Below are positions 7,218 through 64,000 of a stretch of DNA of 64,000 nt, piece by piece. Both the position numbers and the translations under genes were made by a program. This DNA is from Mustelus asterias (taxonomy: Eukaryota). Numbering within the stretch: position 1 is the stretch's first letter; every line of letters starts with the position of its first letter. The DNA lies in the NCBI RefSeq assembly GCF_964213995.1, contig NC_135819.1, forward strand, positions 66,712,001 through 66,776,000, written 5' to 3'. The notes below the pieces were generated by a model, which did not search any database, had not been told where the DNA came from, and worked only from the letters and a program-made list of their open reading frames with translations.

Positions 7218-10200
7218 ATAAGAACATAAGAACATAAGAAATAGGAGCAGGAGTAGGCCATCTAGCCCCTCGAGCCTGCCCCGCCATTCAATAAGATCAT
7301 GGCTGATCTGACGTGGATCAGTACCACTTACCCGCCTGATCCCCATAACCCTTAATTCCCTTACCGATCAGGAATCCATCCATCCGCATTTTAAACATAT
7401 TCAGCGAGGTAGCCTCCACCACCTCAGTGGGCAGAGAATTCCAGAGATTCACCACCCTCTGGGAGAAGAAGTTCCTCCTCAACTCTGTCTTAAACCGACC
7501 CCCCTTTATTTTGAGGCTGTGTCCTCTAGTTTTAACTTCCTTACTAAGTGGAAAGAATCTCTCCGCCTCCACCCTATCCAGCCCCCGCATTATCTTATAA
7601 GTCTCCATAAGATCCCCCCTCATCCTTCTAAACTCCAACGAGTACAAACCCAATCTCTTCAGCCTCTCCTCATAATCCAAACCCCTCATCTCCGGTATCA
7701 ACCTGGTGAACCTTCTCTGCACTCCCTCCAATGCCAATATATCCTTCCTCATATAAGGGGACCAATACTGCACACAGTATTCCAGCTGCGGCCTCACCAA
7801 TGCCCTGTACAGGTGCATCAAGACATCCCTGCTTTTATATTCTATCCCCCTCGCAATATAGGCCAACATCCCATTTGCCTTCTTGATCACCTGTTGTACC
7901 TGCAGACTGGGCTTTTGCGTCTCATGCACAAGGACCCCCAGGTCCCTTTGCACGGTAGCATGTTTTAATTTGTTTCCATTGAGATAGTAATCCCATTTGT
8001 TATTATTTCCTCCAAAGTGTATAACCTCGCATTTATCAACGTTATACTCCATTTGCCATATCCTCGCCCACTCACTCAGCCTGTCCAAATCTCTCTGCAG
8101 ATCTTCTCCGTCCTCCACACGATTCACTTTTCCACTCATCTTTGTGTCGTCTGCAAACTTCGTTACCCTACACTCCGTCCCCTCCTCCAGATCATCTATA
8201 TAAATGGTAAATAGTTGCGGCCCGAGTACCGATCCCTGCGGCACGCCACTAGTTACCTTCCTCCAACCGGAAAAACACCCATTTATTCCGACTCTTTGCT
8301 TCCTGTCGGATAGCCAGTCCCCAATCCACTTTAACACACTACCCCCAACTCCGTGTGCCCTAATCTTCTTCAGCAGCCTTTTATGGGGCACCTTATCAAA
8401 CGCCTTTTGGAAATCCAAAAACACCGCATCCACCGGTTCTCCTCCATCAACCGCCCTAGTCACATCTTCATAAAAATCCAACATGTTCGTCAAGCACGAC
8501 TTTCCCCTCATGAATACATGCTGCGTCTGATTGATCGAACCATTTCTATCCAGATGCCCTGCTATCTCCTCTTTAATAATGGATTCCAGCATTTTCCCTA
8601 CTACAGACGTTAAGCTGACCGGCCTATAGTTACCCGCCTTTTGTCTCCTTCCTTTTTTAAACAGCGGCGTAACATTAGCCATTTTCCAATCAACTGGCAC
8701 TACCTCAGAATGCAACGAGTTTTGATAAATAATCACTAACGCATCCACTATTACCTCTGACATTTCTTTCAATACCCTGGGATGCATTCCATCCGGACCC
8801 GGGGACCTTCAGTCCCATTAGCCTACCCAGCACTGCCTCTCTGGTAACATTAATTGTATTAAGTATTTCTCCTGCTGCCAACCCTCTATCGTTAATATTT
8901 GGCAAACTATTTGTGTCCTCCACCGTGAAGACCGACACAAAAAACTTATTTAAAGACTCAGCCATATCCTCATTTCCCACTATTAACTCCCCCCTCTCGT
9001 CCTCCAAGGGTCCAACATTCACTCTAGCCACTCTATTCCTTTTTATATATTTATAAAAACTTTTACTATCATTTTTTATATTAATTGCTAGCCTAGCTTC
9101 ATAGTCTATCCTTCCTTTCTTTATCGCTTTCTTAGTCTCTCTTTGTTGTTTCTTAAATTTTTCCCAATCACTTGTTTCTCCACTATTTTTGGCCACTCTG
9201 TACGCAGCTGTTTTTATTTTAATACTCTCCTTTATTTCCTTCGTTATCCACGGCTGGTTCTCCCTTTTCTTACAATCCTTGTTTTTTGCTGGAATATATT
9301 TTTGCTGAGAACTGAAAAGGATCTCCTTAAAAATCCTCCACTGTTCCTCAGCTATCCTACCTGCCAGCCTGCTCTCCCAGTCTACCTTAGCCAATTCATC
9401 CCTCATCCTATCATATTTCCCTCTGTTCAAACAGAGGACACTGGTTTGGGACCAAACTTTCTCCTCTTCCATCTGAATCAGAAATTCGACCATATTGTGG
9501 TCACTAGACCCAAGAGGGTCCTTCACAATAAGATCCTTAATTCTACCTACCTCGTTACACAATACCAGATCCAAAATAGCTCGTTCCCTCGTCGGTTCCG
9601 TAACATGCTGTTCAAGGAAACTATCCCGACAGCATTCTAAGAACTCTTCCTCCATTCCACCCTTACCGACTTGAGTCTGCCAGTCAATGTGCATGTTGAA
9701 GTCCCCCATGATTATTGCCGTTCCGTTTTTACATGCATCCCTTATCTGCTTGTTTATAGCCCTCCCTACCTCAACATTATTATTTGGGGGCCTATATAAC
9801 ACACCTACTAGTGTCTTTCTCCCTCTACTATTCCTCATCTCTACCCATAATGATTCCACGTTTTGTTCCTCAGAGCCTATGTCATCCCTCAGTACTACCC
9901 TGATATTATCTCTTATTAATAGCGCGACCCCACCACCTTTTCCTTCCTGTCTATTCTTCCTAAACGCCTGATACCCCTGGATATTCATCTCCCAGTCCTG
10001 GTCACCTTTCAGCCACGTTTCTGTACTGGCCACTAGATCGTACTCACTTGTGCTGATTTGCACCATCAACTCATTTACCTTGTTCCGAATGCTTCGTGCA
10101 TTCAGGCAAAGTGTCCTTATTCCAGCTTTTATCTGGACCCGCTTTGATGAGTCGCGAACACCCTCTCCCTCTACTCCCTTATCTAAATTACCGCCTTCAT

Positions 10201-10276
10201 TCACTTGCACCCTCTCCTCTACCATTAATTTTGTAATTCCCCTTACCCCTGCATCCTCCCCCCCATCAATTAGTTC
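7218..10276 (-). mobile_element. Young CR1 LINE with near-complete ORF2 (APE endonuclease + RT), one frameshift at ~8805, truncated at the ORF1/ORF2 junction
   Basis: ORF 8705-10339 has CLNARS, TETW, GDFN and SDH; ORF 7318-8787 has GVPQGSVLGP and KFADD; (ttcttatg)n tail. Confidence 0.96.
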
Positions 10277-10443
10277 CTTGATGATGGATGACCAACAGAT
10301 GCAGCTGATTGGTGAGTAAGTCCTGGTAGGTATTTCCAAACCATATTAAATTGTATGTCATTATTTAAGCAAGGGTAGGAAATTATTTGATTTATTTCTT
10401 TTTTTAAGTCTTATAAAGTTTTTAAACTTAAAAGGGTTTAGTC

Positions 10444-40169: not shown

Positions 40170-41204
40170 GGCCACACCCATCCAATCCCACAAGGTGGGT
40201 TCCTACTATAGCACTCCTGCCCTGGCTTGCCCATATGTTTCATGCGTATACCCATGCGGGCAACGGAGGGATGATCAGGGTAGTGCAGCAGTCATGGTTT
40301 GCACCAAGATTTTCCACCATGGCAGGAAAGATTGCTGCTCGATGCCTACTCTGCCATCGCCATAACCCTGGAAAGACACCGCCAGCGGCTGCAGCAGAAG
40401 GCCCACAACCATGGGGTCCTTTTCTGCAACTATAAATGGACTTGATACAAATGCCCAAAAGTATGGGGTATAGCTGTGTACTTGTTATTGAATGTTTATT
40501 TTCGCGATGGGTAGAAGCATACCCAACTAGAAAAAATGACGCTGTTTCTGTAGCTAAGTTGCTGTTATGTGAATACGTTCCTCGATTTAGGATTCCCAAG
40601 ACACTAGTGACAATGACCCTCATTTTACAGGGAAACTGATACAGGAATTATTGAAAGCATTACAATGCAGACACCACCTTTCCTGCCCCTACCATCCCCA
40701 GTCTACGGGTGCAATTGAGAGGCAAAACAGGATACTAAAGAATAAGCTGGCCAAATTGTGTAAGGAAACAGGCTTGAAATGGCCTGAAGCCCTACCCCTG
40801 GCCCTCATGGTCATGCGCTCCCTTCTTTGGCACCTTATAAGATTATAATGGGATGTCCCATGCGCTTACCTATCTTCCCACCCCTCACTATTAAACAGAT
40901 GAATATCCACTCCATGGATGAAGGAATGATGGACTATTACATACCTCTAACTCACTCACTTAAAAGATTTCATTCCCAGGTCGTGAAAGCTCAGAAGCAA
41001 GTCACCACTGAGGGCTGCCATTTCTACCAACCAGGAGACTTAGTCTTCATTAAGACCTTCCAAAGAAAGCATTGCCTGGAACCTCGATGGGAGGGACCTT
41101 ACTGCATCCTGCTGACAACTCACACAGCCGTGAAGGTGGAAAGGAAACCTTTGTGGATACACATGATCCATGTCAAGCAGGCATCCTCAGAAGAAGAAAC
41201 TTAA
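40170..41204 (+). pseudogene. pol: ERV integrase remnant, class I (gamma/epsilon-like)
   Basis: H-H-CLLC zinc finger, MDLIQMP, FSRWVEAYP, SDN, YHPQSTGAIERQN and GPY/F module WEGPY.ILLTTHTAVKV. Confidence 0.92.
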
Positions 41205-41222
41205 ACAAGGACTTGATACTGT

Positions 41223-42292
41223 TTGAAATGTGAATTTTGGTTGTCATTGATTGTACTGCCCTTTGCAGAGGTGTGGATTAGCAATTCCACGATTCGAAGA
41301 ATGCAAGCTGTCGCTTCACAGGGCAACCAGACCCAATGTTGGATCTGTACTCCCCTCCCTGCCACCCCCGCCTCATCAGAAATGCATTTTTTGCTCTCCC
41401 TTCAAGCCTTGAGTGGTCTGAGGAAGCCACAGTGATCCTCATCCTGAAGACAACAGCCTACCCCAGTGGCCATTAAGGCACGGGCATGGCTGTGTGTTAG
41501 GAGGAATTATACCCATGGGTTCATTCAGGTGGGTGATCTTCCATTGGGTTCCTGTACTTACCTTGCTGAATATGGCTACTGGGAAGCTTGGTTTTGCTTC
41601 CACAATCTGTCTGGTTCCATGAATCCTTTTTGGGATTGCACGACTAACAACCCCTTGTGCATCGCCCACTTCCGAGGCCGAACTCCGCTATACCAAGGGT
41701 GAGTGTGATTGCCAGCGGTCACACAACCTCAGCCTCCATGGTCTCGTTACCGTCTGACCTTCTGATGGCACCTATCCGAAGGGATTAGGATCTTGTAACC
41801 ATGGGGATTGGTCTGGGTGTGCAGACCAAGTAGCCCTAAGGGCTTTACGTCTCAGTCAGACTTGAAATATCTGTTGGTATGCCCAGGAGAAATCTCCCCA
41901 TACCCAGTATTGGCTTCCTTTTTTGCCAAAACACCACATTCTGGTACCTGACCCTGGTTCACAATGGTTCATTCCTCGTCGATTGGGCCGGCACCTGCAC
42001 CATAGGTCACATGATCCCTGAGGCCTTTGGGGTCAAGCACCTGTTAATCCACTTCCTTCACAACCATCTAGGGTTTGTGAAGCGTCAAGAACGGTCAGTT
42101 CCAAACCTGCTTGTCACCCGTAACACCGGCTTTCACCAGTTTGCCCGGGCCCTCCTCCAGGTCTTGGGGTCTCAGAATTAGAAAAGGCTATTATTAATAT
42201 TTCTGCTATCATGGAAATAATTGAAAACAGCACCATGGACGCCATTCAGGGCCTACAGTCGGGAATTCAGTCCCTTTCTAAGGTGGTGCTAC
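41223..42292 (+). pseudogene. env: ERV gamma-type env remnant, truncated
   Basis: Signal-like N-terminus, CWIC (41337-41348), WAGTCTIG, VKR cleavage-like site (~42085), TM heptad LEKAIINISAIMEIIENSTMDAIQGLQ...SLSKVVL. Confidence 0.85.
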
Positions 42293-42900
42293 TGTGGCCA
42301 AATGGGCCACCTAAAATGGCGATTTATAAAGCACTCTGGGACAATTGGGCAAGAACTAAAACAGCAGGCGACAGCCGAAAAGACCGAGATAAACAGGCTG
42401 CAACTCAGATGACTGAATACACAGGATATGAGCCATTTCCAGGACAAAAGGGACTTTCTGATCAAACTGGGTTGTTTACTAGACATAGGGGCGCCATAAC
42501 CCCTTATCTGGGAGGGAGGTGTGTGTCCTATGTGCCCCCAGCACCTACAGACATGGCCATTGGGGACACACCCAGAGATTGGTGTGGCAGCACCCGATTG
42601 GACTTTATCGATCAGGGTGATCAAGTCCTGATCGATTGATTGGCAATGGCCAAAAAGGGCGCGAAACCCAACGGGTTATAAAGGATGCTGCGCAACCAAG
42701 AATCTCTCTCTCTCTAACAACGGTGACCATTGCCAGCAACGACCAGCACGAGGAAAGCCACCACACCCAAGAAGGAAGGAAGACCGGAGCCAGAGTGTCA
42801 GACCAGACCAAAGGACCAGACTACGCAGAGGACTACAGAGACTAGTGCACAGATAAAGGCCAATATCTGCCTGGGTACTTGCCAGTCATGCAAAGTTAAG
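42293..42900 (+). mobile_element. Probable partial LTR of another element that truncates env
   Basis: Abrupt TGTGG start, TATA-like ggttataaagg followed by a (ct)n run; the right end is not resolved. Confidence 0.4.
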
Positions 42901-44445: not shown

Positions 44446-47400
44446 CCTCTCTCTACCACTAGCATGAGATTTCAATGATGTAGTGGCGATGGATCTAAAG
44501 ATATAGGACAAGGATAAAAGCATCTATCTATTGCACTTTGTGGACATGGCCACCTGGTTTAGCTTATCCACGGTGAGTTACGGCAAAGATAAAAAGACCA
44601 TTAGAGATAAAATTATGACCCACTGGATTGGAACAGGATTGGGAGCACCGCCTAAATTTTTGACAGACAATGGGGGCAAATTCGCAAATTGTAAGTTTCA
44701 AGATATGTGCGAAAACTTAAGTATTGTAATGATGCACACTGCAGCAGAGAACCCATTCAGCATTGGCCTCTGTGAAAGGAATCACAGTTATAGATGACAT
44801 GTTCCAGAGTGGAAAGGGCCGGGAAAGTGATAGGAACAAACGGCAAGGTAGTTATATTACAACACAGTAACCAGACAGTGCGAGTTCACTCTTCGAGAGT
44901 AGTGGGAATTGGTTATGAATTTAGAGCATCTGAGCAAGATGCAGAAGGGCAGGAGGCACCTTGTACCTCACATGCACATACCCTGAGTTATTATGAGGAT
45001 CAGTCAACAATAGCTGAGAGGGAATCTGATGATCAACAAAGAACAAGTGAAGCAGGGGATGAAGCTGCTACTTCAGAGGTTCAGCTACCCAAAGTAGGCA
45101 TAGTGGTATCATAAATACCCGAAGGGTCAAGCGAGTGGAGGGATGCCACTATAATCGGGAAAGCAGGAAAGACCGCAGGAAAGTACAAACACTTGCTCAA
45201 CATACAAGAGCGAGGGCAAGAAGCCAAAGCTATAGATTGGGAAAATGAGGTGGACAGATGGAAACAAAAAAAGCGAGACCTAAGTCCTGAGGATGAGACA
45301 GTAAGCATTCGTGAACCCAGGAAAAAGTCGCGAATCTGTGACCAAAGGCGTGTCAACAGAGAACAGCGGTCTGAGAGTAGCATCCCTGACAGAAACAGAC
45401 ATGGCAGTAGAGACCGGAGCTTAACGAGGAAGGCTAGGAATCAAACCAATGATAGGAATAGGAGCAGAAGCCCCCATGATAAGGAAGTATTGATAGCTGC
45501 AAACAAAATGGAGCTTGCGGAAGTAAGAGAGGCCAAACAAAGAGAGCTGAACAGTTGAAAAGAGTTTGGGGTGTACACCGAGGTACCAGATGAAGGGCAG
45601 CCTGCTTTGTTCCATAGGCGGGTTTGCACAGAGAAAGTTTTGCAAGATGGAACATATAAAACTAAAGCCAGATTAGTAGCCCGTGGGTGAGGAACATTTG
45701 GATGGGAGAGACATTAGGGTTGATTCATCCACAGCAGGGAAAGTGACACTGAATTTTTTTTCGCTGTTCTAGCTTCTAATAATTGGATGTGTAAATCAAT
45801 AGATATCAAAGCAGCATTTCTGCAGGGTGAAACATTTCAGAGAAAAGTTTTTTTGAGGCCACCCAAAGAAGCAGGTAATACACAGGGAAATTTGTGGAAA
45901 TTGAACAAATGTATACATGGGTTAAGTGATGCATCATGGCTTTAGTATTTCTCTGTACGATCTGTATTGCTGAAGACTGCCCAGTTGAAAGCAAATCCAG
46001 CAATGTTTTACTGGAAGGCTAAAGGAAAATTAGCAGGAATTTTTGTGATGCAGGTGTGAAGAAGGGAAAGAGTTAATGTTTTTTTTGTACTCAATGTATT
46101 TTGTGCCTAAAAGGTTGAACTTTGTATCTGGAATGTATCATAAACATAACCCTTCCTTATGGCTAGTTTCCCCTTTGTTTATATTGCTCCTGGTAGTAGT
46201 ATAAGCCATTTGTTCATGTCTTTCATCTTTAACTTTTAGTAGCACAAGCCATTTGTTCTTGGTTTCATCTTTAAATTTTAGTAGTATAAGCCATTTGTTC
46301 ATGGTTCCCTAGCTTGTTTATATCATTCTGATAAAACAGACAGTTAAATGTAGATGTAGGGTTGTAAGTCTTACTTTTTCCGTAGGCTTGTGTATGATTT
46401 AAACAAAGGAAGCAGCTATCAAATGGTAGAGTGCGAGAATGGCCGTCTGAAGGAGGACTCCCACTGGGACAGCTGCAATCGTACACAGTCACTTCAAAGG
46501 AAAAGCTGTGGGAAGAGCAGGGGACCAGAGGTGGCACCTTGACCAGGAGAATTGTGCTTTATGACCCAAGGATACCAGATAGTCTCTAACCATGATCCAG
46601 AGACTATCAGAAGCTGTTAAAGGAACTATAACTTATGATCAAGGACTGTTAACTGGACTTTGCTTCATGACTTGTATTGGGAACCCTGATGTATAAAGGC
46701 CCACGCTTCTTGTGTTCAGGGAGAACTTTAGCTTCCGCTTTCAAGGGGTCAGGTTCTCCCTCAAGCTTGTGAGAATAAAGCCTACGCTATTTTGACTCAT
46801 ACCAGCCTCATGAGGTATATTTACCGACTTCAATGTGGATGATTTCCTTTGGAGTGGCCCAGAAGAATTTGAAAAAAGGATAATTGAGAAGCTGAAAACA
46901 GAATTTAAAGTAGGGAGTCAAGCAGCTGGTGCTTTTCGATAACTTGGTCTTGATATCTGACAAAGTACATCTGGTGTAACGATGAGTCAAAAGGGAGATC
47001 TAAAGAGTATAGATCCCATTCCCATCACCAGAGAGAGGTCAATGGAAAAAGAGGAACGGGCCAACGATAAAGAAACAGAATTGTTGAGGAGTATGAAAGG
47101 ACAGCTTAATTGGCTATGCACACAGACAAGACTGGATGGGAGCGATAATGTCCTAGAGCTCAGTAATATGTTGAAGCGCGCCACAGTCAGAGAAATCTTG
47201 CAGGCTAATAAGACATTTGAAAAGTTAAAATTAGGGGAATGTGTGATTAAATTCCCAGCACTAGGAGAACCAGAAGATATGAAATTGGTTGTGTTTAGTG
47301 ATGCCTCGCATTCCAATCCACTAGATGGACATTCAAGCGGTGCTGGATTCATAATATTCCTGGTAGGTAAGGAAGGAAAATGTTGCCCCTTGGCCTGGGA

Positions 47401-48113
47401 AGCAAAGAAAATAAGAAGGGTAGTCAAAATCACATTGGCAGCTGAAACCCAAGCGTTGGTGGAGGTGTTAAATATGGGAATATATTTGTCTGACACATTA
47501 ATAGAATTTTTTTAATGGGCACATCGGGTAAGAAAGTACCAATAGAGTGTTATGTGGACAATCGGACTTTATGGGACAATGTTCACTCAACAAAAAGTGT
47601 AACAGAAAAGCGATTAAGAATTCATTGGCTGGTGTTAAACAAATGCTGGAAAACAAAGAAGTTTCCAAACTTAACTGGGTTGCTGCAAATCTACAGCTGT
47701 CTGACTGATTTACAAAAAGGGGTGCAGGTACTGGAAAGTTATTAAGAATACTGGAGGATGGTTGTCTTAAATTATTTTGAAAAAAAAATTAAAATAAAGG
47801 GAATCTGTTGGAATGTAACTGGTGACAACTTTGTATTAGATGTAATGTGACCAATGGTAACAAGCTGTAAGAGTCAGCTGACCCAGTAAAGCATGGAACC
47901 AATTACAGAATGACGTGATGGTCAGCTGACCAGCTGATTCAATATAAATAAGAACCTGTTGGGAATTTTGGCGAACTTGGATTGGCCGAGGGTGAGGCCT
48001 CATGTTTGGAGTAATGAAGTTTCTTTATTAAACCCTTTCTTTGATTTATAAGTTGGAGTAAGTTTTGTTCTATTTTTATTATCTGCATTTGAAGAGTTCC
48101 TTCCGAGGAAACA
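44446..48113 (+). mobile_element. Ty1/copia LTR retrotransposon relic (IN-RT-RNase H, 3' LTR ~47806-48113), possibly GalEa-like
   Basis: Integrase (VAMD / TDNGG / CERNH) precedes RT (KARLVARG, DIKAAFLQG, HVDD) and RNase H (FSDAS...LAAET); a polypurine tract precedes TGTT...AACA. Confidence 0.88.
46057..46832 (+). mobile_element. Solo LTR (776 bp) with 5-bp TSD inside the copia RT
   Basis: TGAAG...CTTCA inverted ends, TATA at ~46692, AATAAA at ~46774, ~43-bp tandem repeats at 46194-46304, TSD aggtg/atgtg. Confidence 0.88.
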
Positions 48114-61001: not shown

Positions 61002-61047
61002 ATGATATTATTTTGCCTTTTCCTGCAGTTGCTGATAACCTTTGCAG
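61002..61047 (+). CDS. Leader (signal peptide) exon MILFCLFLQLLITFA of the IgSF receptor gene
   Basis: aacatcATG context, hydrophobic core, phase-1 donor GCAG|gtacgt compatible with the V exon; CATATAAA at ~60845. Confidence 0.8.
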
Positions 61048-61147
61048 GTACGTGACCTAAGGATGGTATTTTTAGTTTGAAAATCAAAATTGAAGTTAGA
61101 TGTTAAATAACCATAGAATGTGGCACCTGTATAGTGAATGATTAAAG

Positions 61148-61411
61148 TAAAAAGTAAAGTTTATTTATTAGTCACAAGTAAGGCTGACATTAACACTGCG
61201 AAGAAGTTACTGTGAAATTCCTCTAGTCCCCCCATTCCTGCACCTAACCAGCACTTCTTTCAGAATGTGGGAGGAAACCGGAGCACCTGGAGGGAACCCA
61301 CACAGACACGGGGAGAACGTAGACTCCGCATAGACAGTGACCCAAGCCTGGAATCGAACGCAGGTCCCTGGAGTTCTGAGGCAGCAGTGCTAATTACTGT
61401 GCCACCGCCGC
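61148..61411 (-). mobile_element. V-SINE, alternative tail, in intron 1 of the IgSF gene
   Basis: Head, V-domain and ...taataaataaacttt tail. Confidence 0.85.
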
Positions 61412-62372
61412 TAAATTACAAGTAATGATATGAATAAATTGTCTTTAGTTTAGTGAGGATATTTTACATGGATTTGAGTTCGACATGACTTATTCCTCCG
61501 TTGAGTTTTTGGAATCAGTTTTTTAAAACTAGGATAGGAGTATTTAATTTGATCTAAACCGGCGGTATCTAAATGTATTTCCATATACCACTTTACGTCA
61601 AGTTTTTAATTTAATTCCGTAGCATGCCAAAGCCTTTCACTGTATCTCTACTATAAATGCAACTAAAATCTGTAGAGAACTGATGTAAACTTTTCAAAAT
61701 AAGTATTGTACATGCCAGAAATTTGTTGTTTTATACAAAATAAAGTATTCGATTTACAGATGCTTAAATCTCTTGTTGCATGTGCCGTTCGTGAGCTAGC
61801 CGTCCATGTTCCTGAAGTTTGCTTCCATTAACTATCATTCCGTACTATGTATATCCTCATATAATACTCGCTGTTCGTACAGTGCGCTTTTAGTAAAATA
61901 CCATAATATTCTCAGTTATCAAGGTGGGTACAGATAATAATACTTTTCATTCTATGCTGCCTTGCATTATTATAACGCGTTACGGCTATGTTGTAAAAAC
62001 TGGTTATTTGACGCACAACGGCTATATTTTGAGCCCGCTGTTGGACTTATTTCGCACACAATCGGATAATTTGTGACCATCCCCGTTCCTTCAATACTGC
62101 TTAACACATAATATTAAATTCCTCTCTCTATGTTTAACACCTGGAAAAACATCTTTAAACTTATACGCCAATAAGGTTGAAAATACAAAATGTGTAGTAA
62201 CAGAGCACATTAATGTGAACGCATAAAATGTTTCATTTTGTATTTGAACAAAATGAAGTTAACGCTCCAATGAAAATAGGAGAGGCGTTTCACATATTCA
62301 CTTTCGTTGCTAATAATGAATGCACAGTGGGATTTTGACTCTCTGACATTACGTTGTATTACTCTTTTCAAG

Positions 62373-62732
62373 CTGGACAACGGATTGATCAATGTTTACA
62401 GCAGCCTAAAACGCTTTCTGTCACAAAAGGAGACTCGATCGTGTTAAATTGTTTCTACTCGGCACCTAGTCTACAAAGATTCGAAGCTTGGTGGGTTTTC
62501 CAAAATGACCACCGATGTCCTCTCAAGACCATCGCAAATTTATCGTCCAATGGACCCCAAGTGATTCATTCTCGATATTCTGCAATACACAACTCCAGTC
62601 AGAAAGCATTCACTTTAAGGATAACTGATGTTCAAATCAGTGACACTGGAGTCTATCGCTGTGAGATGTTTAAGACCTCGCCTCCACCAACTGGTAAAGT
62701 AATAGGAAAAGGAACGGCGCTGAAAGTAATTG
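62373..62732 (+). CDS. Ig V-set domain exon with germline-joined J motif; CD28/CTLA-4/NKp30-like receptor
   Basis: Acceptor ctcttttcaag|CT, donor ATTG|gtaact, 360 nt, phase 1/1. QQP, B-strand Cys (VLNC), C-strand Trp, FTLRI, DTGVYRC, SPPP loop, GKGTALKV. Confidence 0.93.
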
Positions 62733-63475
62733 GTAACTATATAACTTTATAAATTAGATTTCGTACTATATTATTTTGCACATTCCTACAAACTTCAGCT
62801 GAAATGAATTCTGTACACGTTTTTGTCAGTCACAGAGATGTGAGTGCTCAGGTTTGATAGTTAGTCCGTGGCGAATTGGCCCGAGCAAGACGTTAGGAGT
62901 GCTATAATTGACCTCAGTGCCCTTAGGCTTGGGAGGTTCCTACCCTTGATCTTTATCACGTTTTCCAGATGGACGTGCATATAAATGACATTGGTGGAAG
63001 ACAGAATCCGGGTCTCCATAGCAGAACAGCTTCATGATTTCCTAGGGTCGCACACGAGGAATATTCACAGGTGAGATGTTGGAGGGAACCTTTGGAGCAG
63101 TACCCCAGCAAACAGTCGGTTTACAGAGTGGTGAAAGGGAAAAAAATGGGTGGGAAAAGGGGGCAAGAAAGAAAGGAAAAGAAGTCATTGCGACAGTCAT
63201 ATCAAGGGTATAAACTAGAAAAGCACGACCAATATTTGAGATAACAATGCTGGCACACTGACAACCAGTATCAGCATCAAAGTATAATATATATATATAT
63301 ATATATTAAAATTCCCTTCACCCTACCCAAAAACTGGATTGTACCTTTGTCAATGTGCTAACTTTAACGGAGCTAATATAAATGAAGCTGTGAAGAAAAC
63401 ACAGATATCGCAAGCATACGTTTACCATTACTAACCAAAGTGCATAATTTGTCTCCCATGCTTAAAATATTGGAG

Positions 63476-63593
63476 CAGCAGCGCTCCGAAAGCTAGTGGC
63501 TTGTGCTACCAAATAAACCTGTTGGACTTTAACCTGGTGTTGTGAGACTTCTTACTGTGTTTACCCCAGTCCAACGCCGGCATCTCCACATCA
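63476..63593 (+). mobile_element. 5'-truncated Penelope pLTR in intron 2 of the IgSF gene
   Basis: gcgctccgaaagctagtgg...ctccacatca; TSD taaaatattggag at 63463-63475 and 63594-63606. Confidence 0.9.
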
Positions 63594-64000
63594 TAAAATA
63601 TTGGAGTCATTGGAGCAAAGGTTATTTGACTTCTTAAAGATTATTCTGCATTCAAATAGCATTCCTCAATTTGGGCTAATGAAATGTTTGGTTATTTTAA
63701 AAATCAATTGTAATAACACTGGTCTTGTTCCCGACTCTTGCTTTGATAAAGGCAGACATGAAGTACTTATTTACATGCAGTTGCTATTTTTTGATCATCC
63801 ACAAATTGACAATCCTCTGTTGGGTTTCACATCACTTTTAACAATTCTCTGTGTATTAATATAATTGTAAAATACTTCAGTCTCTTTTTTAATGAGTTTT
63901 GAAATTGTTTTCTCAGAATTCCTCTTAGCATCTTGTAAGTATCTACTTACAATAATTAAATTACTTGACATATTAGTTGACCCCAACAACTTTCTAGGCT

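Follow-up and report, generated by a model that had tools for sequence, protein, structure and literature searches.

The window (the whole stretch of DNA that was analysed, 64,000 nucleotides) ends inside a gene whose leader and V exons lie within it and whose remaining exons follow farther along the same contig, C19. The features of this gene are given below, with plain positions counted within the window and prefixed ones along the contig.

61002..61047, plus strand: exon 1, leader peptide, with ATG and a GT donor in phase 1, aligning with catshark leaders
61150..61407, no strand assigned: SINE-like high-copy repeat in intron 1, with a contig pile-up in the thousands
62373..62732, plus strand: exon 2, coding for a V domain of germline VJ type that has the canonical Cys-Trp-Cys and a GxG G strand
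62681..62689, plus strand: PPP of the F-G (CDR3-like) loop, the predicted ligand-binding loop, conserved and at the centre of the modelled interface
62733..63070, plus strand: alternative extension of exon 2, with a cryptic GT donor at 63071 and a stop 7 codons past the V domain
62733..64000, plus strand: start of intron 2; the gene extends beyond the window on C19
C19:66781484-66781795: C1 exon, from mapping of catshark and sawshark homologues
C19:66788082-66788171: TM exon, encoding no charged residue, from homologue mapping
C19:66794710-66794783: tail exon, from homologue mapping
C19:66796089-66796211: last tail exon, ending in the stop codon, from homologue mapping

The resulting layout, leader-VJ-C1-TM-tail, has an intact open frame of 334 aa and GT-AG boundaries at all five introns. 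The downstream exons were located by mapping longer homologous proteins of catsharks and one sawshark, which contain a C1-set domain in addition to the V-set, onto 200 kb of DNA beyond the window. The V exon matches the Pfam V-set (E 1.9e-17) and its AF2 model is a confident V fold (pLDDT 91.6), while the product of the C1 exon is a C1-set domain (E 2.8e-8); a full-length fold computed from a 3-row alignment (pLDDT 33.8) was set aside, and an NCBIfam search returned no match. The TM exon is 18 bases (6 aa) shorter than the catshark TM exons, with a mean hydropathy of 2.16 vs 2.4-2.8, and the tail exons encode two ITIM-consensus motifs, IYYAEL and IVYSTV, with their tyrosines 20 residues apart. 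The V domain is single-copy, the next best of 91 genome matches being 34% identical. This best paralogue match (34%) is a germline VJ exon at C13:61.43 Mb, bordering a cluster of light-chain genes joined in the germline, with no C1 within 8 kb.

Splice support comes from contig runs that are not on record as RNA (X1, X3 and X7) and carries no tissue information. X7 represents another organism; X3 shows no differences from this genome and, because it is possibly the source of this assembly, its evidence is not independent. The bounds of exon 2 (62373..62732) are matched exactly by one X7 contig. Contigs of X3 and X7 stop at the bounds of the C1 exon, with V-exon letters before it and TM-exon letters behind it, and the C1-TM splice is well bridged in both; at the V-C1 joint the short side measures 30 letters in X7 and 12 in X3, below the 31-letter rule. 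X6 has no contig over the C1 exon. The short form of the TM exon also occurs in X3, and X7 differs at the exon start, being catshark-like. Loose ends of contigs from X1 and X7 (other organisms) join the cryptic donor at 63071 to the C1 exon, and the product of this donor would be either a V-only protein or a decay target.

The earlier note, made from the window alone, had proposed a leader and a single V exon containing its own J-type G strand, with no RSS after it. The exon model (ATG, GT donor in phase 1, Pfam V-set) bears this out, and no RSS was found at 62300-63600 on either strand in a scan that tolerated 2+3 mismatches and recovered the RSS at one of two TCR-type control loci. The F-G loop CEMFKTSPPPTGKVIGKGT and the sequons NLS and NSS of the V exon are present as described, and the loop deserves the name CD28/CTLA-4-like to the extent that it matches the CTLA4/CD28X motif YxCx6PPPx4/5GxG; the flanking tyrosines of MYPPPY are absent. 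The proposed extra cysteine pair fared less well: both cysteines exist, but they are neither a conserved pair nor a family feature, as the DQC cysteine is private to this genome (1 of the 21 aligned rows) and the HRC cysteine occurs in 3 of 21. The AF2 model puts one of them where the domain starts and the other within the C-C' loop; by general Ig-V geometry we take these places to be opposite ends. Of the downstream features that the note had suggested looking for, ITIMs are there (two), YxxM and a charged TM residue are not, and the C1 exon came in addition. The C1-set domain is a further Ig domain following the V, which the note itself had named beforehand as speaking against its reading, and it puts the gene outside the CD28/CTLA-4 family as PMC11599192 defines it (IgV-TM-tail).

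No other recognisable host gene was seen among the long ORFs upstream of the receptor gene in the window; the intervals 8708-10345, 40788-42636 and 45084-47512 hold a LINE endonuclease ORF, a C-terminal fragment of a retroviral integrase and other retroelement pieces. Elsewhere on the contig, C19:66518548-66523974 (minus strand) contains two long ORFs, of 812 aa (TSP1 and LDLa) and 305 aa (coiled-coil-like), which seem to us to resemble SE-cephalotoxin-like fish proteins, and the exon at C19:66696939-66697250 is presumably acyl-CoA thioesterase/BAAT-like, with no Pfam match.

Orthologues of the receptor were recovered by profile search from sharks, rays, gar, axolotl, newt, frogs and turtles; among the 13 of 150 listed matches that were looked up, none came from a bird, mammal or teleost or bore the name PRARP. 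The group is marked by PPP together with a derived C1 domain (extra Cys pair, no C-strand Trp). Of 21 orthologue rows, 20 retain PPP and the remaining one, from a ray, reads PAP; the loss of the C-strand Trp along with the extra Cys characterizes 20/20 orthologue rows vs 0/12 other C1 domains. A C1 tree of 48 rows puts the 17 orthologue rows on a side of their own (99/97). Two ITIM/ITSM motifs are present in all eight shark and ray tails examined, as well as in gar and axolotl; the tail ends in an ITSM in two frog orthologues, the turtle model shows a single tail motif, and none is seen in the newt model. Several database proteins (P0012, P0015, P0017, P0018, P0021) contain tandem Ig units that match the receptor profile several times, P0012 (axolotl) having two V-C1 units of the receptor's family.

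The next gene along the contig encodes a B7-type membrane NLR:

C19:66824055-66851623, same strand as the receptor gene: neighbouring gene with signal peptide, B7 IgV, TM, NACHT and LRR, in eight mapped exons

It begins 27.8 kb past the receptor stop codon and is intact, with an IgV domain, a hydrophobic stretch that has basic residues after it, a NACHT domain with Walker A, and LRRs, from which a type I membrane protein is predicted. Its IgV is closest to CD276 and VTCN1, with no resolved sister in the B7-V tree. The same B7-IgV-TM-NACHT fusion is found in all seven shark proteins among 8 matches, and a genome-wide NACHT search detected no close copy (next match 33%). The linkage is not peculiar to this assembly: in Scyliorhinus torazame and in Heptranchias the receptor and the NLR have consecutive-looking, adjacent accession numbers, and the two genes are on contigs of equal size in 5 species. 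Beyond the NLR gene come a tetraspanin (Pfam just under the cut-off), which we take to be TSPAN33, and then SMO, a TSPAN33/SMO region that presumably corresponds to human 7q32. The synteny comparison proposed in the earlier note thus yielded neighbours (NLR, tetraspanin, SMO) and no match to any of the CD28-family marker lists compared from PMC11599192, where the markers of the CD28 cassette are given in a figure alone and the comparison covers the other lists.

When the IgV of the neighbouring NLR was used as a genome query, 39 B7/butyrophilin-like V matches were obtained, one of which, on C17, is separated by 33 kb from a VJ-C1 gene that bears PPP. The loci concerned, together with one on C14, are these:

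C17:70.70-70.97 Mb: a row made up of BBX, then three VJ-C1 genes with PPP, then a B7 gene of V-C-V-TM layout
C17:53.31 and 53.41 Mb: two nearly identical VJ-C1 genes in inverted orientation, neither with PPP
C14:90.27 Mb: V of CD28/CTLA4 type with an HPPPY loop and an EYVNM tail exon

For the C17:70.70-70.97 Mb row there are relatives in elephant shark and eel, and two of its three PPP-bearing genes carry EIPPP. The V-C-V-TM gene has the layout of HHLA2, and BBX is the neighbour of HHLA2 in human; because IFT57 sits on C2, the HHLA2 label of the C17 gene is drawn from the V-C-V-TM architecture and BBX alone. Both PPP-bearing VJ-C1 loci found adjoin a B7 gene, making the C17 cluster a candidate second receptor-ligand cluster. 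According to PMC11599192, CD28H, which carries EIPPP in sharks, is the receptor of HHLA2. The inverted pair at C17:53.31/53.41 Mb is a candidate for the PRARP pair, and no B7 match is listed near this PPP-less locus at C17:53 Mb; a mannosidase search placed one or other mannosidase paralogue at C17:53.6 Mb. V exons at C1:20.5, C1:171.1, C26:9.8, C10:118.9 and C14:90.27 Mb have EIPPP, EIPGP, SLPPP or HPPPY loops, with a broken copy of such an exon at C1:20.52 Mb, and judging from their sequences these exons on contigs C1, C26, C10 and C14 likely belong to CD28H-like, CD28X and CD28/CTLA4 genes. The C14 gene, with its HPPPY and EYVNM, fits the chondrichthyan CD28/CTLA4 cassette as described in PMC11599192.

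The structure prediction suggested in the earlier note was made for the receptor V domain with the B7-like IgV of the neighbouring NLR. The complex scored 0.70 vs 0.41 for the best of 3 controls, with contact agreement of at least 91% among runs and a partner pLDDT of at least 81; the pass mark is reached by 51/78 solved complexes vs 2/108 mismatched pairs (71/105 vs 2/126 in eukaryotes). The modelled contacts centre on receptor residues 101-107 (TSPPPTG), the prolines packing on residues 54-78 and 117-126 of the NLR IgV, a face that we believe to be the one used by CTLA-4 on B7-1. Because CTLA-4:B7 complexes have already been solved, the pass is to be read as likeness and not as binding; it may reflect the model's memory of the solved pairs, and as a modelled result it does not discriminate among close B7 members. 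Conservation of the interface is about the domain average on both the ligand side (0.86 vs 0.84, p 0.38) and the receptor side (0.73 vs 0.72, p 0.47).

Overall, the gene encodes a VJ-C1-TM receptor that is non-rearranging and single-copy and has a pair of ITIMs, and we lean slightly towards reading it as an ancient inhibitory checkpoint, with its PPP predicted to dock on a B7-family IgV, the likeliest being that of the neighbouring NLR. Of the note's "costimulatory or checkpoint", the costimulatory half is not supported, given the two ITIMs and the missing YxxM, and a checkpoint with a CD28-type loop predicted to bind B7 is supported because of the motif match, the conservation of PPP, the grouping of the V domain (see below) and the B7-type neighbouring gene. 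That the ligand is some B7-family member is, going by the model, reasonably probable; its being the neighbouring NLR itself would be a tentative assignment at somewhat less than an even chance. Mechanistically, the PPP loop would dock in a CTLA-4-like manner on the B7-family IgV, and ligand binding would, to judge from known ITIM receptors, lead to phosphorylation of both ITIM tyrosines. The phosphorylated ITIMs could then recruit the tandem-SH2 phosphatases SHP-1/SHP-2, as in PD-1, and thereby dampen the receptor-bearing cell. PD-1's SH2 partners are conserved in sharks, according to PMC12151841.

In this gene, whose conservation extends from sharks to turtles, the VJ-C1 body of antigen receptors meets a predicted PPP/B7 recognition as in CD28/CTLA-4, so that a single germline gene combines two architectures central to the control of T cells. 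The receptor is also a candidate extracellular partner for an unusual membrane-spanning NLR. A bolder version, which we regard as rather doubtful, is an ancient jawed-vertebrate receptor-ligand cassette, with a CD28-type V domain on a VJ-C1 body binding the B7 tip of the membrane NLR. If true, cell contact would signal both ways, with an ITIM brake in one cell and an NLR switch in the other and, taken with the C17 locus, CD28-family receptors would have arisen from VJ-C1 genes beside B7 ligands via loss of C1.

The alternative closest to the inhibitory checkpoint reading keeps the inhibitory receptor and changes its partner to a different B7 (HHLA2-like, B7-H3/B7-H4-like or CD80/86), with the NLR linkage as a historical relic. 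The 39 B7-like V matches in the genome, the blindness of the model pass to close family members and the absence of special conservation at the interface are all compatible with it, but the adjacency is kept in distant shark orders and repeated at C17, and we consider this alternative unlikely.

A further decrease in plausibility applies to the view that the gene is what SIRP-alpha has become in sharks or its equivalent there, a receptor of V-C1-ITIM build for self-recognition, with CD47 or another non-B7 ligand. The domain classes and the ITIM tail are indeed alike, several orthologues bear SHPS-1-like names given automatically by NCBI, SIRP-alpha tops the Atlas search (0.96), and SIRP-gamma and SIRP-alpha are matched at E 1e-13 by the V-C1 profile against PDB. 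The V phylogeny points elsewhere. An alignment of 69 domains, after removal of 9 near-duplicate, partial or stray rows, gave a 60-row tree in which one side holds the orthologue group together with the VJ-C1 genes of C17 and five V domains of CD28 type, and the other SIRP plus Ig/TCR (100/98). The same split was obtained after the PPP loop and the G strand had been taken out (52 rows, 91/86), and in a 34-row subset it had 95/88 with the loop and 43/30 without. The phylogeny asked for in the earlier note tends to group the V domain with CD28-type V and not with SIRP, with little support in the 34-row set without the loop. These trees left out NCR3, UrIg, CD8, PD-1 and PRARP; rows that bore no name were labelled SIRP, Ig or TCR by us from their motifs, and the CD28-type labels derive from motifs and an absent downstream C1, not from synteny. 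No C1 was found within up to ~8 kb downstream at 5/5 CD28-type loci, and one is present at 4/4 VJ-C1 loci; identity of the receptor V to CD28-type V domains of the same genome is 23-33%. A V clade with SIRP was rejected by the AU test with and without the loop (p 0.025 and 0.013), and the C1 tree separates both as well. Moreover, the receptor has one C1 and two tyrosines, the SIRP rows of the V alignment lack PPP, and the tetraspanin and SMO neighbours are not known as neighbours of SIRP. A CD47 family search gave no match.

Less probable still, and by a wide step, is a direct relic of an antigen-receptor precursor near UrIg/TCR, with PPP acquired by convergence. The VJ-C1 arrangement in phase-1 exons would suit it, as would the first place of UrIg2 among PDB matches of the V-C1 profile (E 3.5e-20), the TCR V-alpha domains ranking first in fold searches, and an AU test that did not reject grouping with Ig/TCR once the loop was removed (p 0.053). 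On the other hand, the full V rejects that grouping (p 0.025), the C1 is strongly derived, and UrIg2 is tied with antibodies and SIRP when a single orthologue is the query, UrIg itself being outside the trees. The fold-search lead was part of a broad tie, with CTLA-4 tied at ranks 28 and 36. The VIA rows listed include no structure of CD28 or CTLA-4, an absence that excludes nothing. We read the fold-search and Atlas rankings as reflecting a general V or V-C1-ITIM likeness. Finally, a true CD28 or CTLA-4 orthologue, for which the match to YxCx6PPPx4/5GxG speaks, is hardly credible, being already contradicted by architecture and position: C1 is present, YxxM and a TM YxxxxT are missing, and a CD28/CTLA4-type V with HPPPY and an EYVNM tail exon sits on C14.

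Six accession stems of the orthogroup were absent from the papers searched and six from supplements of PMC11599192; in the same literature no VJ-C1 with a PPP loop, no link of the orthogroup to a B7-type NLR and nothing on TSPAN33-SMO synteny with shark IgSF was found, and the listed matches on B7 and NACHT included no vertebrate membrane NLR. PMC10751288 is the one relevant paper on VJC1/VJ-C1/PRARP1 among those searched. The receptor gene may already have been described under the PRARP/VJC1 name. Fu et al. are said to have described PRARP in 2019 as a gene pair outside mammals, encoding non-rearranging VJ-C1 proteins with ITIM/ITSM, and Ohta et al. reportedly described, in the same year, non-rearranging VJ-C1 genes of Xenopus as VJC1. 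The receptor resembles both in being a non-rearranging VJ-C1 with ITIMs, and differs from the PRARP pair in being encoded by a single gene, the paired VJ-C1 genes being instead on C17; we know of no PPP/B7 link for PRARP/VJC1.

Unlike NKp30/NCR3, which has a single V domain and a charged TM residue, the receptor has a C1 domain and no charged TM residue and, unlike a rearranging Ig/TCR V segment, its V has no adjoining RSS. With SIRP-alpha it shares a VJ-type V, a C1-set, an ITIM tail and likely SHP recruitment; SIRP-alpha has two C1 domains, whereas the receptor has one, with two tyrosines, a PPP loop, a separate clade and other neighbours. UrIg, according to PMC12227049, is a secreted protein with VJ and three C1 domains, its gene being linked to MHC or antigen-receptor loci; like UrIg/UrIg2, the receptor is a non-rearranging shark VJ followed by C1, but with one C1, a TM segment and a signalling tail. 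The CD28 family is defined as IgV-TM-tail with a single extracellular V, and its members CD28HL3 and PD-1 also carry ITIM/ITSM tails (PMC11599192). Because a C1 exon follows its V, the receptor is outside this family as published, from which the lack of YxxM and of a TM dimer motif and a tetraspanin-SMO synteny that matches none of the marker lists compared also set it apart, while in its germline VJ, its canonically placed PPP and GxG and its predicted B7-type ligand it is like CTLA-4, CD28X, CD28H/TMIGD2 and CD28HL3.
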